DNA of 64,000 nucleotides from an uncultured Gammaproteobacteria bacterium (GTDB lineage Bacteria > Patescibacteriota > Microgenomatia > UBA1406 > GWC2-37-13). A program made the position numbers and the translations under genes. How positions within the stretch are numbered: position 1 is the first letter of the stretch; each line of letters starts with the position of its first letter. Of the stretch, positions 34,480 through 64,000 are shown piece after piece. Under the pieces are notes generated by a model. It saw nothing but the letters and a program-made list of their open reading frames with translations. It was not told the DNA's origin and searched no databases. The DNA lies in assembly GCA_964490875.1 (NCBI GenBank), contig CAZBEF010000007.1, forward strand, positions 5,241 to 69,240. The letters run 5' to 3'.

Positions 34480-34492
34480 CATAGTATTCTGT

Positions 34493-34584
34493 CGTCATTC
34501 CCGCGGACGCGGAAATCAATAAAATTAGATCATCTGATTTTTATTGATTGTATTGTATGGATTCCTGCTTTCGCAGGAATGACG
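34493..34584. mobile_element. MITE-like hairpin-armed inverted-repeat element (family B), intergenic copy
   Basis: Left arm cgtcaTTCCCgcggacgcGGAAAtc, right arm ggATTCCtgctttcgcaGGAATgacg. The termini cgtcattcc/ggaatgacg are inverted repeats, separated by an AT-rich spacer of about 42 bp. It lies between the divergent response regulator and GT-C genes. Confidence 0.75.
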
Positions 34585-34596
34585 TATACACTCCTG

Positions 34597-34602
34597 TATA
34601 AT
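34597..34602 (+). promoter_or_regulatory. -10 box TATAAT, 6 nt upstream of in-frame GTG 34609 (GT-C gene)
   Basis: ctgTATAATcatggtGTG. Confidence 0.4.
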
Positions 34603-34608
34603 CATGGT

Positions 34609-36288
34609 GTGAAAATTTCAAATAGAGTGATATTTATTTCGATTATTATTTTTGTCTCTCTTCTTCATAGTGTATATCTACCCAATGGTTTTAACTGGCT
34701 TGATCATGGCGATATCGAACGGGGCAGAACAATTTTGCCGACTGCCTCATGGCCGATTCTTTTTGTCAGCCGCTTTGGACAAACCGGATTCTTTCGTCCA
34801 ATAGTCGCACTACTAAATAACATCGACTTTATTTCTTACGGACGTGTGGCAATGGGATATCATCTTACTAATGTTTTACTGCACATGGCAGTAGTACTGA
34901 TGACGCCGGTATTCCTTTCTGTTTTTTTCAAACTTACATACACAGAACAATTTTTAAGTATGGTAATCGTCGGTGTTGCTCCTATTCAGTGGCTGCCTGT
35001 TGGGGCCGTGGCATACCGCCCTGAGATTTTGTATACCTTTTTTGCTATGATTTCTATCTGGTGGTATCACAAGGGGAAGAATCTGACAGCGCTTTTCTTC
35101 TTTATTATGTATGCGCTTTTTTCTAAAGAAACTGCAGTGTATATGATTCCTGTTTTATTGCTTATGGTTGAATTGATGAAGAAGCATCACATAATTCCTG
35201 AAAAAAATATATCTAAACAGAAAATAACGCCCGTCATTCAAAGACTAAGTATTATCGTAGTATCGTTTGTTATTTATTGTGTGCTTCGTGCAATTGCGGT
35301 GCCTCAGATATGGACAGTTCGAAATATACCGCTTAGTTTTTCCGAAGCCTTAGGGACTCGGCTTGTCGCAATAGGAAAACTTGCTGCTCAAATTTTTTCA
35401 CCATTTCTTCCTGGTCTTTCGGACTCGACATACATCTACCAGATAAGTAGTATATTTGCCTTAATGAGCGCCATTGCTATATTAGGAAGTATTTACTACA
35501 TAGTTAGATGCGGTTTAAAATCTAATCTAGCTCGAGTTTTACTATTATTTTGGATTAGTCTTCTGCCGGCATTTAATATTCTTCCCGTCCCACGATTCAG
35601 CTCGCCCCATTATGGATATTTTGCCATGGTTATACTGCCGATGTTTTTTATTTTGTTGATGAGAACTGTCATCCCGATGAAGATCGGGATTCCATTAAAA
35701 AAAAGAAGTGTTTATCTACCGCTATCTGGTGCTAATGGGATTCCGGCCTATGCTGGAATGACATTGATTGGAGCATGGATCATAATCGCGGCCTATTCCA
35801 CATTTATCGGCGGTTTTAGATTCAAAAATGACTACACACTCTTTCAGCCGGCAGTGAAACAGGATGATAATTTTTTGGAAGGCCATCAATATCTGGGTGA
35901 TTACTATTTTTACCGTAACGAATTAAAGCCGGCCTCTGCACATTACGAACGGGCGCTAAAAAAAGAAAAAAACATAATCGCCTTTGTCGATACACCTTCG
36001 GTGCTAAATAATTTGGCCGGAGTCCGAATGATGCAGAATCGTTTTACAGAAGCGGACGCGATTCTCGTTTCACTTCAGAAATTACAAGGTGGAAAAGGAA
36101 ATCTTTCCGTCCGATATAACAGAGCTCTTATTGCATATAAACAGAAAAAATATCAGAAGGTAGTCGATCTTCTGTATGATTCATATAAAAAGTGGAACAG
36201 GCCGGAGCCAATTATTTTGCTCGGCGATAGTCTCAAGAAATTAGGAAAAGAAAAAGAAGCTAAAGTAGTATTAAAACTACTTCAGTAA
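34609..36288 (+). CDS. GT-C fold glycosyltransferase (PMT_2/TMTC-like) with C-terminal TPR
   Basis: Multi-pass membrane protein with FFRPIVALLN..GYHLTNVLLH, as in PMT/TMTC-type mannosyltransferases, and a TPR-like C-terminal region. A GTG start at 34609 is proposed because TATAAT (34597-34602) lies 6 nt upstream. The track ATG at 34579 lies inside a repeat arm. Confidence 0.7.
   Translation: MKISNRVIFISIIIFVSLLHSVYLPNGFNWLDHGDIERGRTILPTASWPILFVSRFGQTGFFRPIVALLNNIDFISYGRVAMGYHLTNVLLHMAVVLMTPVFLSVFFKLTYTEQFLSMVIVGVAPIQWLPVGAVAYRPEILYTFFAMISIWWYHKGKNLTALFFFIMYALFSKETAVYMIPVLLLMVELMKKHHIIPEKNISKQKITPVIQRLSIIVVSFVIYCVLRAIAVPQIWTVRNIPLSFSEALGTRLVAIGKLAAQIFSPFLPGLSDSTYIYQISSIFALMSAIAILGSIYYIVRCGLKSNLARVLLLFWISLLPAFNILPVPRFSSPHYGYFAMVILPMFFILLMRTVIPMKIGIPLKKRSVYLPLSGANGIPAYAGMTLIGAWIIIAAYSTFIGGFRFKNDYTLFQPAVKQDDNFLEGHQYLGDYYFYRNELKPASAHYERALKKEKNIIAFVDTPSVLNNLAGVRMMQNRFTEADAILVSLQKLQGGKGNLSVRYNRALIAYKQKKYQKVVDLLYDSYKKWNRPEPIILLGDSLKKLGKEKEAKVVLKLLQ
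35667..35763. mobile_element. family B MITE-like element inserted in-frame in the GT-C glycosyltransferase CDS
   Basis: Left arm tgtcATCCCgatgaagatcGGGATtcc, right arm gGGATTCCggcctatgctGGAATgaca. Translated in frame as VIPMKIGIPLKKRSVYLPLSGANGIPAYAGMT. Confidence 0.75.
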
Positions 36289-37538: not shown

Positions 37539-40175
37539 ATGAAAGGCTTAACAACTCAGGAAGCAGAAAATCTGCTGAAACAATTTGGCCATAATCTGTT
37601 GGAACCGCCGAAAAAACCCGGTTTTATCGCGGTATTTTTTGGTCAGTTCAATAATTTTTTGTCGATTCTGCTTCTTATTGCGGCAGTGCTGGCAATCGGC
37701 ATCGGCGAAGCAGTTGATGGCAGCCTTATTCTGGCGATCGTTTTTTTAAATGCGTTATTTGGCGTATATCAGGAAAAAAAGGCCGAAGCGGCGATCGAAG
37801 CACTTTCTCAAATGAGTGTCACCAAAGTACGGGTACTTCGGGATGGTGAAGAACACGAAATTGACAGCCGTGATATTGTACCCGGCGATATTATTTATCT
37901 AGAAGAGGGGAGCAAAGTGGCGGCCGATGCGAAACTGATCCATGCCGTGCAGCTTGAAATGAACGAATCCGCTTTAACCGGAGAATCGTTGCCGGTTAGT
38001 AAAAAAAACGGCGATGAGATTTACATGGGAACGGTGGTTACACGAGGCCGCACCCACGCACAGGTTATCAATACCGGCGCCAATACCAAGTTTGGAGAAA
38101 TCGCTAAAAATTTATCGACAATCAAAGAACCCAAAACCCCGCTTCAGAAAAAATTGGAGTCTCTTACGAAAGCGATCGGATTAATCGGTATTGCCGCATC
38201 AGTGATTGTTTTCTTTTTGTCACGCGGCGACGGCACCAACCTTTTTGAAGCCTTTCTTCTGGCAGTCTCACTTGCGGTGGCTGTTGTTCCCGAAGGTTTG
38301 CCGGCTGTCCTTACTCTCACTCTCGCGATTGGGGTAAAGGAAATGGCCAAACGAAAAGCAATCGTCCGTAAATTATCGGCCGTAGAAACATTCGGAAGCG
38401 TTACCTTAATCTGTACCGACAAAACCGGAACGCTTACTACAAATAAAATGCAGGTCAAGGAATTATTTGTGAATAATCAGTTAAAATCGGTTGAAATCGG
38501 TCAAAGTCAGTTGGATTCAGCAACTAAAGAATTATTACACTGCAGCATTCTCTGTTCGACAGCTTCATTGGTTCCGGTGCAGGCTTCTTCAAAAAATATA
38601 GAGAAATCATTTGATGTACTAGGCGATCCCACCGAAGGTGCGCCGCTTATTCTCGCTGAAAAAATGGATATGCATGTAGAAGCCGTACGATCACAGTGGG
38701 AAACTACCGATGAAATGCCCTTTGATTCGGTAACGAAACGGATGTGGGTAGCGGTTAGTCCGAAGTCCGAAGTCGAAAGTCCCAAGCAGATGGTCTATGC
38801 AAAGGGGGCGCCGGAAAGTATTCTTTCAATATCAAGTCAAATCATGATTCATAACAAAGTTGAACCATTAACGGACGAGCGAAAAAAAGAAATTGAAAAA
38901 ACTTTAGAAGAGTGGGGAAGAAAAGGGCTCCGTGTTTTGGCATTTGCATATAAACCAGAAAATAGTCCGAAGTCCCGCCTTCGTCAAGACTTCGGCGGGC
39001 AAGCCGAAGTCCGAAGTCGGAAGTCTATAGATGATTTAATTTTTCTAGGAATGGTTGCGATTCATGATGCGCCCCGCCCCGAGGTAAACGAGGCTATTCG
39101 CAAAGCTCATATGGCTGGTATTAGTGTAGTAATGATTACCGGAGATAATGAGATAACCGCTCAGGCAATCGGTTCCTATGTAGGATTGTTAAAAGAAGGC
39201 GATGAAATTCTCAATGGTTCACAAGTTGAAAAATATACGGACGAAGAACTTATGGAAAAACTTCCTAAAGTCCGGATATTCGCCAGAACTACACCGTTTC
39301 ATAAACAACGGATTGTAGCGCTGTATCAAAAACTCGGAGAAGTTGTCGCAGTAACAGGTGACGGCGTGAATGACTCGATTGCGCTTAAACAGGCGGATGT
39401 CGGACTCGCGATGGGCGTTATTGGTACCGATGTTGCCCGTGAAGCGGCAGACATCGTAATCGCCGACGATAATTTTGCGACAATCGTAAATGCCATAGAA
39501 GAAGGCCGCAATATTATTAAAAATGTCAAGAATTCTATTATCTATCTCTTATCATGTAATATTGCCGAAGCGATGTCTTTAATCGGCGGCCTTATGCTTG
39601 GCCTGCCGCCATTATTTCTGCCCATTCAGCTTTTATATATCAATCTGGTAACCGATGGTGTACCGGCGCTTGCTTTAGCTTACAGCCCTCATGAAGAACG
39701 CCTCATGAAACAAGGACCTAAAAAATCCATGACTCTTCTTGAAAAGCCCGATTTTATCCGCATATTTCTCCAGGGTTTTTTTGCAACGGTGTTTGTGTTT
39801 ATAGCTTATTATTTCTACCGATATCAGATGCATCTAGCCGATCAACCGCCGGACACATGGCATAATGTGGGGGCGACAGCCGCGTTTACCGTTCTTGCAC
39901 TAATACAGTCATTTATTTTTCTTGATACCTGGCTTGAACACCGCTGGTTTTTTAAACATATACCAAGGTTGAAGTCTAAAATTTTCTGGATTGCGTTTGT
40001 TATTCCATTTATCGCCCAAGCGGCTATTTTGTATATTCCATCGGCCGAATTGTTGTTTAAAGTTGTTCACCTGAATCCATTTGATTTTGTTATGCTTACC
40101 GGTTTTTCATCCTTCATTTTGGTATTTTTATCGTTCGTTCGGCTGAAACATTCCCATTTATCTTCAAAAGAATAA
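37539..40175 (+). CDS. P-type ATPase, type II (Ca2+-ATPase-like)
   Basis: ICTDKTGTLT, PEGLPAV (TM4), TGDN and GDGVNDS motifs. The N-terminus LTTQEAENLLKQFGHN is typical of Cation_ATPase_N. The start was moved to MKGL; the track start at 37458 overlaps the upstream gene and a repeat. Confidence 0.9.
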   Translation: MKGLTTQEAENLLKQFGHNLLEPPKKPGFIAVFFGQFNNFLSILLLIAAVLAIGIGEAVDGSLILAIVFLNALFGVYQEKKAEAAIEALSQMSVTKVRVLRDGEEHEIDSRDIVPGDIIYLEEGSKVAADAKLIHAVQLEMNESALTGESLPVSKKNGDEIYMGTVVTRGRTHAQVINTGANTKFGEIAKNLSTIKEPKTPLQKKLESLTKAIGLIGIAASVIVFFLSRGDGTNLFEAFLLAVSLAVAVVPEGLPAVLTLTLAIGVKEMAKRKAIVRKLSAVETFGSVTLICTDKTGTLTTNKMQVKELFVNNQLKSVEIGQSQLDSATKELLHCSILCSTASLVPVQASSKNIEKSFDVLGDPTEGAPLILAEKMDMHVEAVRSQWETTDEMPFDSVTKRMWVAVSPKSEVESPKQMVYAKGAPESILSISSQIMIHNKVEPLTDERKKEIEKTLEEWGRKGLRVLAFAYKPENSPKSRLRQDFGGQAEVRSRKSIDDLIFLGMVAIHDAPRPEVNEAIRKAHMAGISVVMITGDNEITAQAIGSYVGLLKEGDEILNGSQVEKYTDEELMEKLPKVRIFARTTPFHKQRIVALYQKLGEVVAVTGDGVNDSIALKQADVGLAMGVIGTDVAREAADIVIADDNFATIVNAIEEGRNIIKNVKNSIIYLLSCNIAEAMSLIGGLMLGLPPLFLPIQLLYINLVTDGVPALALAYSPHEERLMKQGPKKSMTLLEKPDFIRIFLQGFFATVFVFIAYYFYRYQMHLADQPPDTWHNVGATAAFTVLALIQSFIFLDTWLEHRWFFKHIPRLKSKIFWIAFVIPFIAQAAILYIPSAELLFKVVHLNPFDFVMLTGFSSFILVFLSFVRLKHSHLSSKE
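38757..38783 (+). repeat. (AGTCCGA)n heptamer array in-frame in the P-type ATPase
   Basis: agtccga agtccga agtcgaa agtccc encodes SPKSEVESPK. Confidence 0.85.
38964..39025 (+). repeat. heptamer array plus GC hairpin element in-frame in the P-type ATPase
   Basis: agtccga agtCCCGCCttcgtcaagacttcGGCGGGcaagccga agtccga agtcgga agtc encodes SPKSRLRQDFGGQAEVRSRKS, just before the HDAPRPE (DPPR-type) motif. Confidence 0.85.
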
Positions 40176-42695: not shown

Positions 42696-44621
42696 TTACA
42701 AACGTGACTTTACTGCTTTTACGATTGCGGCAGAATCAATTCCTTCATACTCCATAAGCTCTGCTGGTGAACCGGAATGCGGAATAGCCTGGGCACATAA
42801 ATGGCTGACAGCAACCGGCTTTGATATTTCTTTCGCGAAGGTAGACAAAACATTCTTTACTGCTTCACCAATTCCGCCGGCCGGATAATGATCTTCGACA
42901 ATAATCACGTGTCCGGATTTTTTAGCCTGAGCAATAATAGTTTTTTCATCAATTGGTTTTACGGAGTACAGATCTACAACCGCAACCTTAATATTTTTCT
43001 GTGATAGTTCGTTATATGCTTTTAAGGCTTCATGAACTGTTATTCCAGCTGCAAAAATCACTGCGGAGTCTGTCGAACTTTCATACAGAACTTTGGATCC
43101 GCCAATCTGAAATGTATATTCCGGTTTATATAATGACTGTGTTTTTTCACGCGTAAGGCGAAGATAGACAATTCCTTCATGATTAAATGCTTGTTCTGTT
43201 AATTTTAATGTTGAAATTGGATCGGACGGATATAATACAACTGATTCCAGAATACTCCGCATCATTGAAATATCTTCCAATGCCATCTGCGAAGATCCAT
43301 CATAGCCGATCGAAACTCCGGCATGAGAACCGACAACTTTAATATTTGATTCGCTGTACTGTGCCATGCGGATTTGGTCAAACGCTCGTGTCAAAAATGC
43401 CGCAAAGCTTGACAAATAGGGAATGAAGCCTACCCGGGCCAGGCCGCAAGCAACACCAACCATATTCTGTTCGGCGATAAACATTTCAAAATAACGGTCG
43501 TGAAATTTCTTCGCGAATTTATCAGCATATGTAGAGTTAGAAGTCTCAGCATCGAGCACAACCAGGTTCGGATATTTTTCGCCCATCATAACTAATGCAT
43601 CGCCATACGCTTCGCGAGTAGCCGCTGGTTTGTCATAACTTATAGCTGATGGCTGATCGCTCATAGCTTGCAGATTTCGGACTTCGGACTTGCGACTTTC
43701 AACTAATTTCTCTGGTTTTTGAATTTCTGGTTTAATAGTTTTATTGACCTCGCCTAGTTCCCGAAGAGCCTGGTCCAGCATGTCTTTTGGCACCGGCTTG
43801 CCATGCCAGTCATCTTTGTTTTCAAGAAATGAAATTCCTTTTCCTTTCATGGTTTTGGCAATAATCATGGTCGGCTTTGTTCTATCAAGAGCCATATCAT
43901 TTGCTGCGCCGTAGATATTGGCATATGCCTGGCGGATTTTTTCTATCTCATGGCCGTCCCACAGAGTAATAACATTCCATCCAAAAGCTTTCACACGGTT
44001 TTCGTACGTCTGTAAATCCCAGGCGAGCATGGTTTCACCGCGCTGGCCCAAACGGTTCACATCCAAAATTCCCACCAGATTACTTGCTTTGTAATGTCCT
44101 GCAATCTCAAGCGCCTCATAAATTTGGCCTTCGGCAAATTCAGAATCACCAAGAAGAACAAATGTTTTTGGTAGGGATTGCTTCGTCGTTCCTCCTCGCA
44201 ATGACGTATCGTTTAATTTTAAATTCACCCCTAATGCAATTCCCAATCCGATAGAAAGCCCCTGGCCAAGCGAGCCGGTGGCTGCTTCGGTATATTTGAA
44301 TTTTGGCGTTGGATGGCCTTCTAAATTGGAATCAAATTTGCGAAGAGTCATCAGTTCATCATAAGAAATTGCTCCTGCAACTTGATAGAGCGAATAGAAG
44401 AGGGGAGACGCATGGCCTTTTGAGAAAATAATACGGTCGTTGAGAATATTGTCTGGATTCTCAAAATCATATCGGTAATATCCGCCATACATAAGTGTCG
44501 CCATCAGTTCTACTGCAGAAAGGGAAGAAGTCGGGTGCCCCGATCCTGCCGCTGTGGAAGATGTGAGAATGTCATAGCGGAGAAGTTTACTAAATTCCTG
44601 AAGTTCTTTGGTAGTTATCAT
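42696..44621 (-). CDS. tkt: transketolase (fused N- and C-terminal halves)
   Basis: GHPTSSLS, GSLGQGL, LLGDSEFAEGQ and C-terminal pyrimidine-binding/transketolase-C-like regions. The start at MITTKEL is supported by TTGACG-N17-TACCAT-N7-ATG. The track TTG start lies inside the -35 box. Confidence 0.9.
   Translation of the reverse strand: MITTKELQEFSKLLRYDILTSSTAAGSGHPTSSLSAVELMATLMYGGYYRYDFENPDNILNDRIIFSKGHASPLFYSLYQVAGAISYDELMTLRKFDSNLEGHPTPKFKYTEAATGSLGQGLSIGLGIALGVNLKLNDTSLRGGTTKQSLPKTFVLLGDSEFAEGQIYEALEIAGHYKASNLVGILDVNRLGQRGETMLAWDLQTYENRVKAFGWNVITLWDGHEIEKIRQAYANIYGAANDMALDRTKPTMIIAKTMKGKGISFLENKDDWHGKPVPKDMLDQALRELGEVNKTIKPEIQKPEKLVESRKSEVRNLQAMSDQPSAISYDKPAATREAYGDALVMMGEKYPNLVVLDAETSNSTYADKFAKKFHDRYFEMFIAEQNMVGVACGLARVGFIPYLSSFAAFLTRAFDQIRMAQYSESNIKVVGSHAGVSIGYDGSSQMALEDISMMRSILESVVLYPSDPISTLKLTEQAFNHEGIVYLRLTREKTQSLYKPEYTFQIGGSKVLYESSTDSAVIFAAGITVHEALKAYNELSQKNIKVAVVDLYSVKPIDEKTIIAQAKKSGHVIIVEDHYPAGGIGEAVKNVLSTFAKEISKPVAVSHLCAQAIPHSGSPAELMEYEGIDSAAIVKAVKSRL
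43676..43700 (-). repeat. (AGTCCGA)n heptamer array in-frame in tkt
   Basis: The reverse complement agtcgca agtccga agtccga encodes SRKSEVRN in the inter-domain linker. Confidence 0.8.
44175..44206. mobile_element. solo family B-type arm (ggattgcttcgtcgttcctcctcgcaatgacg) in-frame in tkt
   Basis: The reverse complement cgtcattgcgaggaggaacgacgaagcaatcc has the cgtca + hairpin arm layout. It encodes TSLRGGTTKQSL within transketolase. Confidence 0.55.
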
Positions 44622-44628
44622 ACCCTCT

Positions 44629-44657
44629 ATGGTACACCGTTTGATATGAAACGTCAA
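44629..44657 (-). promoter_or_regulatory. tkt promoter TTGACG-N17-TACCAT, 7 nt upstream of ATG 44621
   Basis: Minus strand: TTGACGtttcatatcaaacggtgTACCATagagggtATG. Confidence 0.5.
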
Positions 44658-47159: not shown

Positions 47160-48311
47160 TCATCTTGTCACCTGGTAGCTTTTTACGGTTTCCAGAAGTT
47201 TTTTGGCTTCGGCATTCTCTTCGAAATGCTTGCGCACCGGCTGAAGAAGTTCATCAAGCAGTTTAATAACAGTCTGTTTCAAATCCATCGGATGAAGCGA
47301 TTTGTCGGCGTACAATTTTTCCAGTTCTTCATACGACTTAATTTCCAGATTTCCACCAAATTTCTCCGGACGTTCGACTTTAAAGTCCGAAGTCGAAAGT
47401 CCGAAGTCCGAAGCGTCTTCAAGTGCAGGGAAGATGATGTATTTACAGTATTCCAGAACCGGATTTTCTTTAATTTCTCCCTCCGGAGCCCAGGCTTTGG
47501 ATATTTTCCGTTTAATATCTTCTCTCGTATCCGTCATAAATATTGCCGAATCCGGGTGGGACTTCGACATTTTAAGAGCAATTGTTCGGGAAATTTTGTC
47601 ATTTCTGGTTGAACTGTTTTCTGGATCCTTCGCTCCGCTCAGGATGACATCTTGTCCAGATGGTTTCTGCAAACCCATAAGCATATGATGGCTCACTACA
47701 ACCGGTTTCCAGTATCCAAGCATTGGCCCAATTTCGCGGGCGAGCATATTCACTTTCCGCTGATCCATCCCAAGCTGGGTAATTTTAGCTCCAAGGAGAA
47801 ATATATCAGCACACTGCATGCATGGGTAAATAATCTGCGCGGCGGTTAAGTCCATGCTTTCTTCGCGGCCCATAATTTCTGCCGTCCGAATAAACCGTTT
47901 CAGCGAATTTGTTTTCGCAATCTGGAGAACCAGTTTCCAGTAGCTGTCTTTTTTTACGTAATCCGAGGCCCAGTGGAATTCTACATTCGTAAGATCCATT
48001 CCGCATGCTTTCCAGACTTCAATAAAATATTTTCCGACAGTCTGAATTTTTTCCAAGTCGCCGCCCATTTTATTGTTGGCCCAGGCATGCCAGTCGGCAA
48101 CCCACATCTTAAAAGTCACGCCTGCCTTTGTCATTTTATTGACATTAATTGCTTTGAGAAGTCCTTGCGCAATATGAATCTGCCCCGAAGGTTCGAAGCC
48201 GTCGTAGGCAATAATTTTTTCGTTGGAAGAAAGAAGGGCGGTAAGGTCTTCTGTTGTAATTATTTCTTCACCGACTTGCTGAATAAGTTTTATTTTTTCC
48301 TGCAGATCCAT
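47160..48311 (-). CDS. tyrS: tyrosyl-tRNA synthetase, archaeal/eukaryotic-type
   Basis: AYDGFEPSGQIHIAQG (HIGH region), KMSKS, and C-terminal RPEKFGGNLEIKSYEELEKLY..LHPMDLK, which closely resembles M. jannaschii-type TyrRS as I recall it. TATAAT-N6-ATG. Confidence 0.9.
   Translation of the reverse strand: MDLQEKIKLIQQVGEEIITTEDLTALLSSNEKIIAYDGFEPSGQIHIAQGLLKAINVNKMTKAGVTFKMWVADWHAWANNKMGGDLEKIQTVGKYFIEVWKACGMDLTNVEFHWASDYVKKDSYWKLVLQIAKTNSLKRFIRTAEIMGREESMDLTAAQIIYPCMQCADIFLLGAKITQLGMDQRKVNMLAREIGPMLGYWKPVVVSHHMLMGLQKPSGQDVILSGAKDPENSSTRNDKISRTIALKMSKSHPDSAIFMTDTREDIKRKISKAWAPEGEIKENPVLEYCKYIIFPALEDASDFGLSTSDFKVERPEKFGGNLEIKSYEELEKLYADKSLHPMDLKQTVIKLLDELLQPVRKHFEENAEAKKLLETVKSYQVTR
47373..47415 (+). 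repeat. (AGTCCGA)n heptamer array in tyrS, antisense to the gene
   Basis: agtccga agtcgaa agtccga agtccga on the + strand. The gene is on the - strand, so it reads SDFGLSTSDFK. Confidence 0.85.
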
Positions 48312-48399: not shown

Positions 48400-49929
48400 A
48401 TGTATCAAATGGATAATTCACAAAATCAACCGGAACCACCTGCATCCAGCAGTCCATCTTTATCAGATATTTCTGCAGGGAATCCTGTATCTTCGCCTGT
48501 CGACACAACTATAGAATCCAAACCGTTAAGCCAGTCCGATATTTTTCCTTCGTCCGAACCTCAAGCGCCAGTACAATCTTCTCCTCCTCCTGTTTCTTCT
48601 GAACCTGCTGGGCCAGCTCCAGAACAACCAAGTATACCGCCCGTTGAATCAACACCGCCTTCCGTTGGTGAACCGCCAGTACCGCCTCCGCCTCCTCCAA
48701 CACCTCCAGCTATACCTTCGAAAGGCCAGAATAACAAACGGATTGCAATAATTGCCATGATGCTCATTTTCATGTCAGCAATTTTTGCACTCACATTGGT
48801 CTTCCGTTCGACAAAGTTCACAACACAAAATGAAGCAACAACTCCTTCAACCTGTACGTTATATAACACGAATATCGTTTTAGTTATTGACCGTTCCAGT
48901 ACAATGACTCAAAAAGAGTCGGACGGCAGGTCGAAACTAGAATGGGCTAAACAGTCGGCAAAAACACTGGTGTCACGAATCGCTTCTATGACCGGCGCTA
49001 CCGCAAAAATCAGCGTTATTTCGTTCGGAGCGCAGGGGAATGACGGAACAGGTACTCTTTCATCTGATAATAATTCTACTGTTCATATTAGTTTGAGTTC
49101 AGACTTAAATGCGGTTCAAACTGCAATTGATGGAGTCAAATATATTAAGTCGGGTACTTGTATTGAATGCGGAATCCGTCTTGCTAATCAACAGCTAGCT
49201 GCAACAGCATTGAATAGAGTAGTTATTTTACTTTCCGATGGAAAGGCCAATCATGATTGGTTGGGAAAAAGCGCCAATAGTACGGGTGCAATCAATTTTG
49301 CAAATACCGGAAGAAGTTCGGGTATTGTGTACTATGTTCTGGGGTACGGAGTAGGTTCGCAGATAGATGAAACAACATTAAAAGCCATAGCAGGCAAAGC
49401 AGAAAATTATAAATATAAACCAGATGCCACCTCATGGCCGGAAGCGTTCTTAAGCATTGTCGACTTAATCTGTGCATTACCAACTGCTACTCCTACGAAA
49501 ACACCCACGCCTACTCCAACAAAAACGCCTACACCGACACCTACAAAAACACCAACACCATTGCCAACCAAGACGCCTACTCCAACACTAACTAAGACAC
49601 CAACGCCAACGCCTACCAAAACACCGACACCATCACCTACAAAAACGCCGACTCCATCTCCAACAAAAACGCCTACACCGACACCTACAAAAACACCAAC
49701 ACCATTGCCAACCAAGACGCCAACACCTTTACCCACAAAAACACCAACACCTACAACGACATCCACACCAGTGCCAACAAAAACACCCACGCCGTCACCC
49801 ACCAAGACACCAACACCAACTCAAACCTTAACCCCATCGCCAACATCAACCATCACACCGACGCCAACCATGTGTACCGTTCCTAAGGCTGTAACGAATG
49901 TTAAAGTAAGTTGTCCGTTATGTAAGTAA
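48400..49929 (+). CDS. membrane-anchored vWA-domain protein with long TKTPTPxP repeat tail
   Basis: Pro-rich N-terminus, one TM segment, MIDAS-like [11 protein letters not shown] and a vWA-like fold pattern, about 14 repeats of an 8-aa PT unit, and a Cys-containing C-terminus. Confidence 0.8.
49480..49870 (+). repeat. coding tandem repeat, 24-nt period (TKTPTPxP), ~14 units with a 144-nt higher-order duplication
   Basis: Lies in frame in the vWA gene. aaaacgcctacaccgacacctacaaaaacaccaacaccattgccaaccaagacgcc occurs twice, 144 nt apart. Confidence 0.85.
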
Positions 49930-49933
49930 TCGT

Positions 49934-50869
49934 ATGAAAAAGAAACAGAGAATATTAATACTATCCATATTCACAGTAGTCATACTTATTGGCTTAGTCG
50001 TGGCTCTGTATTTACTGCGGGCTCCGCAAACGACGGTAAATCGAGCTACAACAGAACCAATGTGTCCTGCCAACGGCGCCTCATGTTCTTGGGACAGTGA
50101 CGGTAGTGCAACCTCATTCAAAGTAGAAGTTGTTGACGAAAATACCGGCAATACCATCTTAACCACGACAACATCAAATAAAGCTGTACAATTTACGCCG
50201 ATTCCGAATCATAAATATACGTGTAATGTTACGCCGATAAATTCATGCGGAGAAGGACCTGCGGCAACCGCTTCGAATATATGTATTCCAGAAGCTACAC
50301 CGACAAATACACCGTCGCCTTCACCAACCTTAACCCCGACGCCAACCGTTATTGCGTGCCAGCAGCCGAGCACCTGCATGACAGAAGAAGCATGTACATC
50401 ATCCGGAGGAAAAACAAATGGGGAGCGCTGCGAAACCGAAGGTACAATTTGTTGTGTGCCTGCAGAAAGTACACCGACACCAACTCCAACCGAGACGCCT
50501 GTACCTACGGCAACCTACACCCCAACACCAACTGCTACCCCAACACCGATCCCAACCTATACTCCTGTGCCAACATACACGCCGATTCCAACCTATACGC
50601 CATATCCTACCTACACGCCGTTCCCGTCTGCAACACCGACAGTGCTGCCAACCGCAACCCCATACCCAACCTATACACCGCAGCCAACATTTACATCAGC
50701 GCCAACACCCACACCAACAGAAATTGTGATTGCGGTAAATAATACAAACACGCCAACACCAACTCGTGAAGGTACAGCAGTGCCTACAATTCCATCAGCA
50801 GGTATTCCGGTGGCATGGTACGTAATCTTTATTCCTCTGGCGCTTCTTGCTCTAGGGATGGTATTTTAG
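49934..50869 (+). CDS. membrane-anchored Fn3-like/Cys-rich/PT-rich surface protein
   Basis: Starts 4 nt after the previous stop. N-terminal TM segment, Fn3-like segment ([26 protein letters not shown]), PT-rich linkers, and a C-terminal IPSAG followed by a hydrophobic tail. Confidence 0.75.
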
Positions 50870-59836: not shown

Positions 59837-60205
59837 ATGAATAAAAAGTTATATGTTGGTAATTTGCTATACGAAGTTACCGACGATGAATTATCTCAGT
59901 TATTTTCCCAAGCAGGTACTGTTACTTCTGCTCAGGTAATCCGATATCAAGACACCGGACGCTCAAAAGGCTTCGGTTTCGTTGAGATGTCAACTGAAGA
60001 AGAAGCTCAGAAAGCAATCGATATGTTTAACGGCCAGGACAATAAAGGCCGCAAACTCGTTGTTTCTGAAGCACGACCTATGCAGCCAAGAACTCCAGGT
60101 GGCGGCGGTGGATACCGACGCGGTGGAGACCGAGGTGGTCGCGGTGGTTATGGTGACCGTGGCGGCCGAGGCGGCGATATGGGTGGAGATATGGGAAATA
60201 TGTAA
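59837..60205 (+). CDS. RRM-type glycine-rich RNA-binding protein
   Basis: RNP2 LYVGNL, RNP1 KGFGFVEM and a RGG/GGY-rich tail. SD GGGGGTGA lies upstream of the ATG at 59837. A terminator follows. Confidence 0.9.
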   Translation: MNKKLYVGNLLYEVTDDELSQLFSQAGTVTSAQVIRYQDTGRSKGFGFVEMSTEEEAQKAIDMFNGQDNKGRKLVVSEARPMQPRTPGGGGGYRRGGDRGGRGGYGDRGGRGGDMGGDMGNM

Positions 60206-60230
60206 AAACTATTTCGCATTAGAAATAAAA

Positions 60231-60272
60231 AACGGCAGGTATGTTTCGCAAGAAACCCCCTGTCGTTTTTTT
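60231..60272 (+). terminator. intrinsic terminator after the RRM gene
   Basis: ACGGCAGG-N17-CCTGTCGT stem (one G-U pair) followed by TTTTTTT. Confidence 0.7.
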
Positions 60273-60275
60273 ATA

Positions 60276-60671
60276 TGTCATCCTGATCCGCCTTTGGCGG
60301 AGAAGGATCCAGTAAAATAAAGTATGCCTTCAAAGAACTACTTTGTATATATCCTTGCAAGTAAAAGAAATGGAACTCTATATATTGGAGTAACATCAGA
60401 TCTTATTAAACGTGCATGGGAACACAAGAATTCTATAGTAGAAGGATTTACTAAGAAGTACAAAATAGATCTCCTGGTATATTATGAACAATTTATAGAC
60501 GTAAATCAGGCAATAGCTCGAGAGAAGTATCTTAAAGGAAAAAATAGAAAATTTAAGTTAGGTCTTGTTGAAGAAAAAAATTCTCAATGGGAAGATTTAT
60601 ATGATAAGTTAATTTAATAATTCTGGATTCTTTGCTTCGCCAAGTCAGACTTGGCTTCGCTCAGAATGACA
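60276..60671 (+). mobile_element. family B arms bracketing the GIY-YIG gene (candidate full-length/autonomous element, 396 bp)
   Basis: Left arm 60276-60312 is tgtcatcctgatccgcctttggcggagaaggatccag. Right arm 60623-60671 is ctggattctttgcttcgccaagtcagacttggcttcgctcagaatgaca. The arm termini are the same as in the 85-bp copy in tgt. The CDS fills the interior, with spacers of 11 nt and 5 nt. Confidence 0.65.
60324..60617 (+). CDS. small GIY-YIG nuclease superfamily protein (97 aa)
   Basis: YFVYILASKRNGTLYIGVTSDLIKRAWEHK..GFTKKY..LVYYE..AIAREKYLK matches the short GIY-YIG (COG2827-like) pattern. It is bracketed by inverted repeat arms. Confidence 0.85.
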   Translation: MPSKNYFVYILASKRNGTLYIGVTSDLIKRAWEHKNSIVEGFTKKYKIDLLVYYEQFIDVNQAIAREKYLKGKNRKFKLGLVEEKNSQWEDLYDKLI

Positions 60672-60676
60672 AAGCA

Positions 60677-60713
60677 TGTCATCCTGAGGGAACGAAGTGA
60701 CTGAAGGATCCAG
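60677..60713. mobile_element. additional solo left arm of family B abutting the tgt stop codon
   Basis: tgtcatcctgagggaacgaagtgactgaaggatccag. It ends 2 nt before the tgt stop (60716-60718). Confidence 0.6.
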
Positions 60714-60715
60714 AA

Positions 60716-62068
60716 TCAATAATACCGCAGATATTCGGCCTTTAATTCTCCGAACCGGTTTACGGGAATTGCCTGCCGGATTTCTTCCATTAAATCGGCG
60801 AAGAATTGAATGTTGTGAACTGTTGCATAGAAAAATGAGCGCGGATCTTTCTGCAGAAATAATTCGTACAATTGCTGCCCCGTGATTTTTTGACTGCATG
60901 CGATACACTTACAATCTATTGCGATCGGTTCATTTTGCGTCTTTATTTTCTTGACGGCAATTCTTCCCCGTTTGGTATACAGCATTTTATGCCGAGCTTC
61001 GCGGGTAGGAATAACGCAGTCAAACAGGTCGACGCCGCGTTCAACACCTTCAAAAATGTCGTCTACTTGTCCGATTCCCAGCAAATGTCTTGGTTTCTCG
61101 TTAGGCAGATGGGGCATAATCCATTCCAGAACCTGATGCATATTTTTTTTGCTGTCGCCAAAGCTGTTGCCGAAACTGCCGCCGATTCCAAAACCGGGAA
61201 CGTCGTGTTTGGCACACAGTTTGGCGGATTTTATTCGCAAGTCCTGCCATTCACTGCCTTGGACGATGGCAAATAATGCTTGGGGATTTTTCGTCATTGG
61301 TATTTGTTTGTCATCCTGATCCCGATAGCCATCGGGAGAAGGATCCAGGGCATTAACGTTTATTCTGGATTCTTCGCTTCGCTCAGAATGACAAGAGAGA
61401 AGTTTATGTTTTGTGATACACCTTTCCAGCCAGCGGTCCGTTAATTCAACCGATTTAGAAACGTATTCTTTCGAATTGAACGGCGAAGTGCATTCATCGA
61501 AGGCAAACATTATATCGGCGCCAATCTGGTGCTGCAGTTCCATAGAAAGTTCCGGTGTCAGCGTTCTTTCTTCATCACTTGCCCCGTCGAAGTCCCGACC
61601 GGAGGTAGGGGACGAAGAGGGGTTCCAGCGAAAAGTAACTCCTTCTTCGGTAATAATCAGTGGATTATCGTCATCGTGACTTGTTACAGTAGAAGAATCG
61701 GGCTTAGCAAGTTTGCCAACCTTATGTGTTTTTCCAAATCCTAAAGAAAATACTTGGAATCCTCCTGAATCGGAAGCGACTATACCTGGGAAACCACCAT
61801 ATTCATGAACAGTCTTCGGACTTCGGACTTGTTTCTTCGGACTATCATGAATTTTTTCAATAATATTTTTCGTCCAAATGTGGAAGGTGTTTACTATGCT
61901 GTAGTTTAAGGGGAGTGTATGCGTTACACCAGGGGGAATGCCTTTTATTTGGCCTTCGGTGCCGACAATGGCAAGGGAAGGTGTGTGGAGTGTTCCGTGC
62001 GGTGTTTTGAATTCTCCAGTGCGCGCTTTAGTTTTGGCGTCCTGTGCAGTTAGTTTATATTCGAACAT
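60716..62068 (-). CDS. tgt: queuine tRNA-ribosyltransferase (tRNA-guanine transglycosylase) carrying in-frame repeat insertions
   Basis: TPHGTLHTPSLAIVGT, SDSGGFQVFSL, FDECTS, FAIVQGS, GFGIGG, LFDCVIPTR, zinc site CKCIAC..H and VHNIQFF. At 450 aa it is longer than the roughly 375 aa typical of bacterial Tgt. Confidence 0.9.
   Translation of the reverse strand: MFEYKLTAQDAKTKARTGEFKTPHGTLHTPSLAIVGTEGQIKGIPPGVTHTLPLNYSIVNTFHIWTKNIIEKIHDSPKKQVRSPKTVHEYGGFPGIVASDSGGFQVFSLGFGKTHKVGKLAKPDSSTVTSHDDDNPLIITEEGVTFRWNPSSSPTSGRDFDGASDEERTLTPELSMELQHQIGADIMFAFDECTSPFNSKEYVSKSVELTDRWLERCITKHKLLSCHSERSEESRINVNALDPSPDGYRDQDDKQIPMTKNPQALFAIVQGSEWQDLRIKSAKLCAKHDVPGFGIGGSFGNSFGDSKKNMHQVLEWIMPHLPNEKPRHLLGIGQVDDIFEGVERGVDLFDCVIPTREARHKMLYTKRGRIAVKKIKTQNEPIAIDCKCIACSQKITGQQLYELFLQKDPRSFFYATVHNIQFFADLMEEIRQAIPVNRFGELKAEYLRYY
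61309..61393. mobile_element. family B MITE (85 bp) inserted in-frame in tgt
   Basis: tgtcatcctgatcccgatagccatcgggagaaggatccag + ggcattaacgtttatt + ctggattcttcgcttcgctcagaatgaca. On the coding strand it reads SCHSERSEESRINVNALDPSPDGYRDQDDK. Compared with the arm at 60276, the inner hairpin shows compensatory changes (CCGCC/GGCGG versus CCCGAT/ATCGGG). Confidence 0.8.
61813..61843 (-). repeat. (AGTCCGA)n heptamer array in-frame in tgt
   Basis: The reverse complement agtccga agaaaca agtccga agtccga encodes SPKKQVRSPKT. Confidence 0.8.
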
Positions 62069-62076
62069 ACAGGTAG

Positions 62077-62082
62077 ATTATA
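62077..62082 (-). promoter_or_regulatory. -10 box TATAAT, 8 nt upstream of the tgt ATG
   Basis: Minus strand: gcTATAATctacctgtATG. Confidence 0.45.
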
Positions 62083-62124
62083 GCATTGGACAACGGACTA
62101 TTGATTCATCTGTTTAGTTACTAT

Positions 62125-62463
62125 TTAAAAGTTACATCCTTGTGGACATTTATGATCTGTGTGATCTGGTCTGTCAGTTACTGTGCAATATTCAAGATGT
62201 GGTTTACAAATTGCTCCACATACTACAGACGCAGCGTCCACATTGCGATGCGAATAGTTCATGAATAAACCATTCTTTATGGTTGGCGTTGGTACTTGAT
62301 TTTTTGAAATAGTTGTAACTAGTGCTACCAATAATTTCCCTATGTCAATAGCTCCAACAGGGATTCTTCTTTCATTCGTGATTACTGCTCCACCGGCCTG
62401 ATTAACTGGTTTTTCTTGAGTAGTAGCTGACTGTGTTATTTGTAATAATTCGCATGGAGGCAT
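62125..62463 (-). CDS. hypothetical small protein with Cys-rich C-terminus
   Basis: 112-aa ORF with the C-terminus CGAICKPHLEYC..HKCPQGC. It lies between a duplicated tgt promoter/5' fragment and the intact tgt gene. Confidence 0.4.
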   Translation of the reverse strand: MPPCELLQITQSATTQEKPVNQAGGAVITNERRIPVGAIDIGKLLVALVTTISKNQVPTPTIKNGLFMNYSHRNVDAASVVCGAICKPHLEYCTVTDRPDHTDHKCPQGCNF

Positions 62464-63042: not shown

Positions 63043-63088
63043 AATAGAAAAGAATAGAGACCCTCCCGATAGGCGCATCGGGAGGGCC
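63043..63088 (-). terminator. intrinsic terminator after the Cys-rich peptide gene
   Basis: Minus strand: CCCTCCCGAT-gcgcct-ATCGGGAGGG (10-bp perfect stem), then tctctattcttttctatt. Confidence 0.7.
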
Positions 63089-63433: not shown

Positions 63434-64000
63434 ATGAAAAAATATATTCCCTCCGAATTTGAACAGAAATGGGTGGATACATGGTTGAAAGAGAAGGTGT
63501 ATAGTCCGAAGTCCGAAGTCCGAAGTCTAAAGTCTGAAGTCGAAACTGTAAAGTCGGAGATGCAATATGTGTTGGTAATGTTTCCGTATCCTTCGGGTGC
63601 CGGGCTGCATGTGGGGCACGTCCGTGTATATACCGGCTCAGATGTGGTTGCCCGCTACTTCCGCATGATGGGGAAGCAGCTGCTGTTCCCGATGGGATGG
63701 GATGCATTCGGCCTGCCTGCCGAAAATGCAGCTATAAAAGCTAAAACAAATCCAAAAGAATTGGTGCCTCAATATATTGCCACCTTTAAGCGCCAGATTC
63801 AGATGCTGGGGTATTCGTACGACTGGGACCGCGAAATCGCCACTACAGACCCAAATTACTACAAATGGACTCAGTATCTGTTCATTGAATTCTTCAAAAT
63901 GGGTTTGTTGTACAAAAAAATGACGTCCGTATATTTCTGCGAATTCTGCAAAACCGGTTTGGCCGAAGAAGAAGTGTTACCAGATGGTAAACATGAACGC
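63434..64000 (+). CDS. leuS: leucyl-tRNA synthetase, 3'-partial
   Basis: Hand translation gives MKKYIPSEFEQKWVDTW..MFPYPSGAGLHVGHVRVYTGSDVVARY..PMGWDAFGLPAENAAIK..YDWDREIAT. The ORF is open to the window end. TACAAT-N7-ATG. Confidence 0.9.
   Translation, partial: MKKYIPSEFEQKWVDTWLKEKVYSPKSEVRSLKSEVETVKSEMQYVLVMFPYPSGAGLHVGHVRVYTGSDVVARYFRMMGKQLLFPMGWDAFGLPAENAAIKAKTNPKELVPQYIATFKRQIQMLGYSYDWDREIATTDPNYYKWTQYLFIEFFKMGLLYKKMTSVYFCEFCKTGLAEEEVLPDGKHER
63503..63558 (+). repeat. (AGTCCGA)n heptamer array (8 units) in-frame in leuS
   Basis: agtccga agtccga agtccga agtctaa agtctga agtcgaa actgtaa agtcgga encodes SPKSEVRSLKSEVETVKSE, just upstream of the PYPSG..HVGH region. Confidence 0.9.

Follow-up and report, generated by a model that had tools for sequence, protein, structure and literature searches.

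How did an 85-bp palindrome come to lie in frame within a conserved housekeeping enzyme, and what has become of the enzyme? The question is raised by the tgt gene, encoding tRNA-guanine transglycosylase (Tgt), in a 64,000-nt stretch (the window) of contig CAZBEF010000007.1 from GenBank assembly GCA_964490875.1. The host is a candidate-phyla-radiation bacterium: named relatives of its Tgt, at 46–51% identity, belong to Roizmanbacteria or Woesebacteria. We consider it quite probable that the element is a gene-less dimer of Ssn-related motifs (SRMs), the hairpin repeats of an ssn nuclease cassette, and that it is translated as a disordered surface loop of a Tgt that remains functional. The evidence comes from the element itself, from a cassette lying beside tgt, and from the state of the same loop in related genomes.

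An inverted dimer lies in frame within tgt

On the tgt-sense strand (61393–61309) the element reads TGTCATTCTGAGCGAAGCGAAGAATCCAGAAT / AAACGTTAATGCC / CTGGATCCTTCTCCCGATGGCTATCGGGATCAGGATGACA, two inverted arms with a 13-nt spacer between them (arms D and E in Table 1). As RNA it is predicted to fold at −35.7 kcal/mol (z = −4.95), with 0 of 200 shuffled sequences as stable, and as single-stranded DNA (ssDNA) each of its strands reaches −18.1 kcal/mol (z roughly −4 to −4.5). Arm D alone gives an ssDNA hairpin of −9.9 kcal/mol (z = −2.9).

The initial annotation had described an 85-bp palindrome translated within an intact tgt, and both the sequence and the open reading frame (ORF) are as it described. 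Its account of the added peptide holds as regards the insertion and needs correction as regards the length: 85 is not divisible by three, the stretch derived from the repeat comprises 29 codons (87 nt), and the net expansion in comparison with Tgt of the related contig L002 is 30 residues. Residues 226–254 are the element read as CHSERSEESRINVNALDPSPDGYRDQDD(K), placed between ..RCITKHKLLS and QIPMTKNPQALFAIVQGS; a predicted tryptic peptide of the insert is, for example, INVNALDPSPDGYR. Two of the six reading frames of the dimer are free of stops, and tgt uses one of these. In the best PDB match, 10fb (375 aa), query residue 217 corresponds to residue 170 and query residue 260 to residue 178 (..GNKNALFGIIQGS), about seven residues of 10fb thus corresponding to 42 in the window Tgt. 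The short loop that the initial annotation gave for E. coli Tgt agrees with these seven residues if 10fb is, as its length suggests, the E. coli enzyme.

The element is not peculiar to one assembly, as a JGI contig (L003) matching window positions 63063–61244 at 99.95% over 1,820 nt carries the whole of it and ends 65 nt beyond; the same sequence is present in JGI 3300045377. In the protein, the insert follows the helix at residues 200–230 (..RWLERCITKHK) and precedes the strand at 264–269 (QALFAIVQG) of the TIM barrel. Since an α-to-β loop of a (β/α)8 barrel lies on the face opposite the catalytic C-terminal strand ends, the insert loop should point away from the active site, and its topology suggests that it is surface exposed. 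The element lies in a stop-free frame and its length keeps the frame of tgt, and we propose that it would appear in the transcript and in the protein, there as a disordered surface loop of some 29 residues. The open frame, the frame-preserving length and the position in an α-to-β loop together point to such a translated loop within a Tgt that would still function.

A scan of positions 60150–62150 found no terminator-like site at the element; a single weak promoter-like match lies across arm D on the minus strand, and overall the scan gave no more matches than shuffling leads one to expect. An Rfam scan of the whole window at gathering thresholds gave zero matches, which means that the element corresponds to no RNA family or intron described so far, and no signature of an intron, an intein or translational bypass was found at it.

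The arms match the ends of a neighbouring ssn-like cassette

Between tgt and the next gene, a predicted 97-aa single-domain GIY-YIG nuclease is encoded between two inverted hairpin units, A and B. The protein matches Pfam GIY-YIG over residues 5–78 (E = 6.9e-14), and Y9, Y20, R30, H34, E67 and N86 are invariant in an alignment of 19 homologues. About 8,000 candidate homologues scored at E ≤ 1e-5, and the best 120 listed are 61–73% identical and come from many phyla, among those named being Patescibacteria, Nitrospirota, Omnitrophota and Pseudomonadota. A PDB sequence search with the protein gave no match, and NCBIfam holds no specific model for it, the search giving only a sub-threshold match to a group-I-intron endonuclease. 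Its 54–65% identity to proteins whose genes are flanked by NTS, the Neisseria hairpin repeat bound by the Ssn nuclease SsnA, suggests that it belongs to the Ssn family.

We took 80 homologous ssn loci from GTDB genomes, 73 of which were usable for unit counts. By eye, nearly all 80 show (C/T)GTCAT-stem-loop-stem-ATCCAG just upstream of the gene and its reverse complement just downstream. In the counts, a forward unit stood upstream at 48 loci, a reverse unit downstream at 59 and both at 44, the shuffled controls giving 1, 1 and 0, respectively. The Neisseria NTS, allowing at most one mismatch, was found at 25 of the 80 loci and the published SRM pattern at 57.

The arrangement in tgt repeats that of the cassette. 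Along the plus strand, the cassette runs arm A forward, ssn, arm B reverse, and the tgt insert runs arm D forward, 13 nt, arm E reverse. Arm D is identical to arm A over its first 14 and last 14 nt, arm E matches arm B apart from a longer inner hairpin in B, and the spacer resembles the last bases before arm B (alignment TTAA..T.ATTCTGGATTCTT). With 13 nt in the place of a 294-nt ORF, the dimer has no coding capacity of its own. Judged by these alignments, the tgt insert reads as two cassette ends without the gene, a non-autonomous element resembling a REPIN or a MITE (miniature inverted-repeat transposable element); D and E match A and B both in their order and in their orientation, as a MITE would match the element from which it derives.

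Relative to related genomes, the cassette is an insertion too. The gap between tgt and the gene for an RRM protein is 510 nt in the window, of which about 440 nt are the cassette and a solo unit, C. In three related genomes (contigs L001, L002 and L084) the convergent RRM-protein gene comes immediately after tgt, the gaps being 231, 69 and 107 nt, respectively, and ssn is missing. The intervals compared were 60276–60717 of the window, 4451–4683 of L001, 1665–1735 of L002 and 4518–4626 of L084. The lack of ssn at the syntenic site in three relatives is comparative evidence that the cassette moves.

A compound hairpin unit with several copies in the window

The unit consists of TGTC, AT(C/T)CT, GA, an inner hairpin that varies in both sequence and length, GA, AG(G/A)AT and CCAG. 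When units are folded as ssDNA, the TGTC tag and the CCAG tail stay unpaired and a 5-bp outer stem is closed by a tandem 2×2 GA/GA; the inner hairpin of the main units varies from 7 to 27 nt. Folding as ssDNA is clear where the inner hairpins are longer, in units A, B and D and in the whole dimer. The window contains six copies of the head motif GTCATYCTGA, where 0.36 would be expected.

With a structural definition of the unit (tag, then a stem of 5 bp or more that begins with AT, then C), we found six units of the main type, A to F, all beginning with TGTC, and four further units with other stems at 34492, 34558, 35737 and 44174, those at 34492, 34558 and 44174 beginning with CGTC. The unit at 34558–34584 has an 8-bp stem. 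Positions 34492–34584 hold an intergenic inverted pair with ATTCC stems (CGTCATTCCCGCGGACGCGGAAATC ... GGATTCCTGCTTTCGCAGGAATGACG) between the response-regulator and TPR genes. Several stem types thus coexist in one genome, and only one ssn gene is present in the window.

Table 1. Positions in the window of the repeat units and of the genes that carry or accompany them
Feature	Position	Strand	Remarks
Dimer of inverted hairpin units (SRM, or TGTC-tagged repetitive extragenic palindrome, REP)	61309..61393		Tags outward, CCAG tails toward the 13-nt spacer
Arm D	61309..61349	+	TGTCATCCTGA-TCCCGATAGCCATCGGGA-GAAGGATCCAG; tgt strand encodes LDPSPDGYRDQDDK
Spacer, 13 nt	61350..61362		Plus strand roughly GGCATTAACGTTT
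Arm E	61363..61393	-	TGTCATTCTGA-GCGAAGC-GAAGAATCCAGAA; encodes CHSERSEESR
tgt (tRNA-guanine transglycosylase)	60716..62068	-	Uninterrupted 450-codon ORF; carries the insert
ssn-like gene	60324..60617	+	97-aa single-domain GIY-YIG nuclease (predicted); 640 bp from the tgt element
Upstream arm A	60276..60312	+	Ends 11 nt before the ssn ATG; ssDNA -9.5 kcal/mol, z = -3.5
Downstream arm B	60620..60672	-	About 2 nt past the ssn stop, inverted relative to A; ssDNA -9.3 kcal/mol
Solo unit C	60677..60717	+	Tail overlaps the tgt stop codon; folds poorly
Unit F	47621..47651	-	In frame in TyrRS; gives DVILSGAKDP just before KMSKS
TyrRS (tyrosyl-tRNA synthetase)	47160..48311	-	Archaeal/eukaryal type; NF006330, 372.9 bits
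Other-stem unit in transketolase (42696-44657)	44174-44206	-	CGTCATTGCGAG...GCAATCC; in frame, TSLRGGTTKQSL
Other-stem unit in TPR protein (34579-36288)	35737-35763		TGTCATTCC...GGAATCC; in frame, GIPAYAGMT
Heptamer-type AGTCCGA insert in tgt	61806..61845	-	Residues 75-88 (DSPKKQVRSPKTVH), SPKKQVRSPK; unrelated to the SRM dimer

The same Tgt loop in relatives

Four related Tgt proteins were compared at the insertion site: those of L002 (P0003) and L001 (P0001), both 77% identical to the window protein and 86% to each other, and those of L086 (P0006, 70%) and L084 (P0007, 65%). Tgt of L002 (403 aa) has a baseline loop, HKDLS-VIASKKN-QALF, without the insert peptide or a full unit, and that of L086 (420 aa) likewise has no unit and lacks the peptide. 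As the L002 and L086 proteins are only 70–77% identical to that of the window, the junctions of the insert are not exactly definable. At positions 1074–1085 of L002 (codons ~207–211), a head-like 12-mer, CGTCATTGCGAG, sits exactly at the LS junction where arm E starts in the window; it may be what an old unit has left behind, or it may match by chance.

Tgt of L001 carries a single arm, CTGGATCCTTCGCTCATCGCTCAGGATGACA, in the position and frame of arm D, giving LDPSLIAQDDI. When positions 61309–61349 of the window are aligned with 3844–3873 of L001, the outer arm parts CTGGATCCTTC and TCAGGATGACA are identical (11 + 11 nt) and the inner hairpin differs. The termini may be identical because constraint or gene conversion has preserved an old insertion, or because units inserted repeatedly at one site. 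In L084 this loop contains another SRM (CGTCATTCTGG...CCAGAATCG, RHSGKSINGETRPES), and there is a further unit (RDPDLHRDDK) in the loop at residues 79–88, so that SRMs occupy the loop of the insert in three lineages. In P0012, the peptide RHPERNARSKWSEGSH in a third loop looks SRM-derived; no unit was found when the DNA of its gene (L085) was scanned. Another relative, P0086, has VRSEKSEVRSKK, of the heptamer type described below, in the main loop.

The length of this loop, from W..RC to QALF, could be measured in 97 of the 120 best Tgt matches. It is 8–10 aa in 56 of them, and 35 have expanded loops of 13–54 aa made of unrelated low-complexity sequences, which makes the loop a general sink for insertions.

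Tgt probably remains functional

The window protein matches Pfam TGT at E = 2.9e-90, and a PDB search finds solved bacterial Tgt structures at about 1e-53. The NCBIfam scores are 302.9 bits for TIGR00449 and 302.1 bits for TIGR00430, the latter 4.6 bits short of the equivalog cutoff, 306.75, since the match is broken up by the inserts. On that score a genuine Tgt could be downgraded in automatic annotation; with inserts pushing such a protein below the cutoff and the published SRM pattern missing the repeat variant, both annotation pipelines and SRM censuses will undercount cases of this kind.

Residues D100, D191 and Q270 stand in invariant alignment columns, and D350, C386, C388, C391 and H418 in nearly invariant ones (≥90%), the zinc site Cys-x-Cys-x2-Cys...His being complete. 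These are the counterparts of Asp102, Asp156, Gln203 and Asp280 of the Z. mobilis enzyme and of its zinc ligands. The proportions of nonsynonymous and synonymous differences (pN/pS) in comparison with L001 are 0.159/0.720 upstream of the insert and 0.108/0.729 downstream, and the values for L002 are similar; with both orthologues, pN is 0.09–0.16 and pS 0.72–0.75 on both sides of the insert. Synonymous sites are saturated between the window and L001, and the part downstream of the insert is the most conserved stretch of the gene (pN 0.09–0.11). These values indicate strong purifying selection on both halves of tgt.

The AlphaFold model of Tgt has a pTM of 0.83 and a target-normalised TM score of about 0.9 to the Z. 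mobilis and T. maritima enzymes. Its per-residue confidence (pLDDT) falls below 50 over more than three residues only at 76–83, 123–130, 153–163 and 227–258, all of them inserts, and the flanks of residues 227–258 are modelled confidently.

We judge from the retained catalytic and zinc residues, the purifying selection, the insertion-tolerant loop and the states of the orthologues that Tgt probably remains functional. The initial annotation had come to the same view on the ground that all catalytic and zinc-site motifs are present; those motifs do lie in invariant or nearly invariant columns, and the selection on both sides of the insert and a predicted fold with low confidence only in inserts point the same way. 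Its proposal of a mobile-element origin is supported too, the arms being near-identical to the intergenic copies that bracket the GIY-YIG gene. The alignment of orthologues that it had called for shows L002 and L086 without the peptide. A repeat-less orthologue with the same peptide would have spoken against an insertion; L001 shares LDPS..QDD and carries a repeat arm in its DNA, and since this half of the peptide comes together with the arm, the comparison supports insertion. The initial annotation had missed that the repeats belong to a described superfamily with a described partner nuclease.

Relation to known repeats and nucleases

The units of the window are variant members of the superfamily of CGTC-tagged REPs, which have a CGTC or often a TGTC tag, a stem starting with AT and a CCA tail, and which occur mostly as inverted dimers (PMC3733652). 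Their stems are 8–9 bp and their loops 4–5 nt long, Neisseria dRS3 and the R. conorii repeats RPE-4 and RPE-6 are members, and intragenic units and dimers encode 20–30 aa in known proteins; Di Nocera et al. (2013) found no dedicated transposase for them (PMC3733652). The window units share the unpaired tag, the AT stem start, the CCA tail, the inverted dimers and the intragenic copies. They differ in that the main units form a compound hairpin rather than a simple stem, and in that they flank a GIY-YIG gene, whereas the 2013 study had no enzyme gene to pair with the repeats; its sampling left out the phylum of the host.

The enzyme side was described by Chenal et al. (2025). N. meningitidis SsnA is a 94-aa GIY-YIG protein (cd10448) that binds the NTS hairpin in its ssDNA form only and makes its cut a few nucleotides upstream, and bacterial SsnA homologues are flanked by SRMs (PMC11893778). 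The arrangement NTS-ssnA-NTS resembles an insertion sequence, mobility being hypothesised, and NTS around Neisseria genes lower the integration of transforming DNA via SsnA; Patescibacteria and intragenic copies are absent from that study (PMC11893778). The window cassette has the same build: a small GIY-YIG gene between inverted hairpins, whose head is (C/T)GTCAT and whose tail is ATCC(A/R)G, and many further units dispersed in the genome. Its protein, at 97 aa, falls within the described range of ~94–105 aa and keeps the conserved Tyr, Tyr and Glu, and its homologues at 54–65% identity are flanked by canonical NTS or SRM, whereas the units of the window escape the published search pattern.

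Two further comparisons are instructive. REPIN/RAYT and IS200/IS605 systems likewise have singlets and inverted doublets and a single-copy gene for a nuclease acting on ssDNA hairpins that is flanked by the same repeats, and the doublet is the presumed mobile unit. Their enzyme is an HUH/Y1 transposase, whereas that of the window is GIY-YIG; Ssn is not known to carry out strand transfer, and REPINs are essentially extragenic. The other comparison is with the Rickettsia palindromic elements (RPEs), which Ogata et al. (Science, 2000) are said to have found in frame in many unrelated housekeeping genes; expression of the decorated proteins has reportedly been shown experimentally. The RPEs are likewise in-frame palindromes at fold-compatible positions in a small-genome bacterium; RPE-1 is about 100–150 bp long and unrelated in sequence to the window element.

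The repeat superfamily, its partner nuclease and in-frame copies in Rickettsia and elsewhere are thus already known, and no new kind of system is revealed here. What is new is the phylum, the compound hairpin variant missed by the published pattern, a parent cassette beside a gene-less derivative, the absence of the cassette at the syntenic site of relatives, and the recurrent occupation of one Tgt loop. At this locus a cassette, its gene-less derivative and copies lying in frame within housekeeping genes can be seen together. It links the protein-decorating CGTC repeats, described in 2013 when their enzyme was still to be found, with the Ssn nucleases described in 2025 apart from any coding insertion, and it extends the phenomenon to candidate-phyla-radiation bacteria, whose proteins are often noted for odd insertions.

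Weighing the explanations

The RAYT/REPIN and IS200/IS605 systems suggest by analogy that the units may spread because an Ssn-type enzyme nicks their single-stranded hairpin. That the ssn cassette is an active GIY-YIG-based mobile element, with SRM dimers as its MITEs, we put forward tentatively, as a possibility that we doubt more than we believe. If it were so, the window would show a parent cassette beside a deletion derivative that has landed in a gene; the recurrence of SRMs with identical termini in one Tgt loop would point to site-preferential re-insertion or to gene conversion keeping intragenic units alive; and candidate-phyla-radiation bacteria would regularly gain new protein loops by repeat insertion.

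Several observations weigh against reading the tgt element as a translated SRM dimer of an ssn cassette in a working gene. The published SRM pattern, HGTCWYN(0-2)YYVSBRHN(0-5)WNVSBRGN(0-2)RNCYNB, has 0 matches on either strand of the window, and it was for this reason that we adopted a structural definition. The units form a compound hairpin, a 5-bp stem with a GA/GA loop and a nested hairpin, instead of the described stem of 8–9 bp with a loop of 4–5 nt, and two of the six (C and the short GCGAAGC type) fold no better than shuffled sequences as isolated ssDNA. A target-site duplication or a consensus in the flanks, sought by eye around the six units, was not recognised. The activity shown for Ssn is the cutting of ssDNA, not transposition (PMC11893778). 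The purifying selection, finally, was estimated over long branches, with which a very recent inactivation of tgt is compatible.

This last point bears on the reading in which the inserts have inactivated tgt and the ORF is a newly formed pseudogene still to decay. The low-confidence inserts of the protein (at least three or four), a TIGR00430 score just under the equivalog cutoff and the averaging of selection over long branches would fit it. We nevertheless regard it as improbable: all 450 codons are open with every catalytic and zinc residue kept, the downstream half is the more conserved one, the predicted fold matches that of TGT, and relatives with comparable inserts in the same loops keep intact ORFs. 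Slightly less far from the preferred reading is the idea that the element is kept because it is useful, as an Ssn target that affects recombination or transformation around tgt, as a hairpin that acts on mRNA stability or translation pausing, or as a peptide with a new function. The effect of NTS units on transforming DNA in Neisseria provides a precedent (PMC11893778), SRMs stand in the same loop in three lineages, and the outer arm parts are identical in the window and L001 despite saturated synonymous sites. Recent re-insertion or gene conversion explains that identity equally well, however, the region is predicted to be disordered, the inserts in this loop are extremely heterogeneous in sequence and length among relatives, and the single genuine gene among 63 unit copies (see below) looks like selection against coding insertions, all of which make a retained use unlikely.

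Removal of the segment before the mature protein, as an intron, an intein or by translational bypass, might be suggested by the very stable mRNA hairpin, since structured RNAs can be excised or bypassed. It is nonetheless very improbable. The segment lacks an in-frame stop and the matched pair of take-off and landing codons that bypassing needs, its 85 nt are far below the size of group I and II introns and its 29 aa below that of inteins, and no Rfam family was found. Exact keeping of the frame would be needless if the segment were removed, and single arms, which are unable to form the long hairpin, are also in frame in Tgt of L001 and in TyrRS of the window. Least credible of all is that the likeness to SRMs is coincidental, the peptide being either an ordinary loop specific to the lineage or an artefact of assembly at a repeat. 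The loop is indeed variable in the family, and contigs often break at repeats, as L003 does shortly past the element. Yet the arm termini (14 + 14 nt) are identical to those of the intergenic copies flanking ssn, the head motif is far in excess of expectation, an exact unit recurs in many metagenome stretches, and the second assembly has the whole element inside tgt.

Repeat units in other genes

Metagenome sequences contain the exact 28-nt unit in at least 120 stretches, in several of them as dimers with spacers of 16–25 nt. Among the 63 copies with enough flanking sequence, four lie in long ORFs, in comparison with 53% of random positions. Three of the four ORFs were rejected as spurious high-GC antisense frames. 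The remaining one, on a low-GC contig (L147, ~4800–4900), is a genuine GatB with the in-frame dimer NLVILSGAKNPAKRNTAFGLDPSVVSLPQDDKK (VILSGAKNP...LDPSVVSLPQDDK). With 1 of 63 copies in a genuine gene, in-frame insertion is the exception; the units are strongly depleted from genes overall, and the window, where several housekeeping genes are decorated with repeats, is unusual.

One of these is the gene for TyrRS, whose product has, relative to solved TyrRS, about 27 extra residues (PSGQDVILSGAKDPENSSTRNDKISRTIAL) directly before KMSKS. They derive from an SRM unit and an apparently decayed second arm (CCAGAAATGACA). In-frame repeat copies are present in the TPR protein, transketolase, a P-type ATPase and TyrRS of the window; the initial annotation had missed the further in-frame inserts in TyrRS, transketolase, the P-type ATPase and tgt itself.

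A second family of repeats, tandem heptamers AGTCCGA / AGTCGAA, is found at 47384–47413, 43675–43697, 38757–38786, 39001–39023 and 63503–63539 as well as in tgt. They are in frame in tgt, in TyrRS (ASDFGLSTSDF, a 10-residue insert) and in transketolase (SRKSEVRN); the P-type ATPase holds two in-frame copies (SPKSEVESPK and QAEVRSRK), and one further copy in the window is probably intergenic. The tgt copy falls in the inverted-repeat families I1, I2, I7 and I8, coincides with the drop in pLDDT at residues 76–83, and is absent from P0001 and P0003. A further low-confidence segment of Tgt (residues ~150–165, positions 61560–61640) reads NPSSSPTSGRDFDGASDEER, with GTCGAAGTCCC-like sequence within it and a pLDDT below 50, and is missing from the same two proteins.

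Longer repeats are found elsewhere in the window. A 2,822-aa ORF at 41–8509 on the plus strand consists of 300-nt repeats with spacings from 414 to 1,221 nt, and four tandem paralogous ORFs of 1,544–1,983 aa at 13214–34010 on the minus strand share modules that are 70–82% identical. Thr/Pro-rich tandem repeats of 24 nt (and 18/30 nt) at 49477–49880 and 50285–50712 are located in the C-terminal part of a VWA-domain protein (48400–49929) and in the next ORF.

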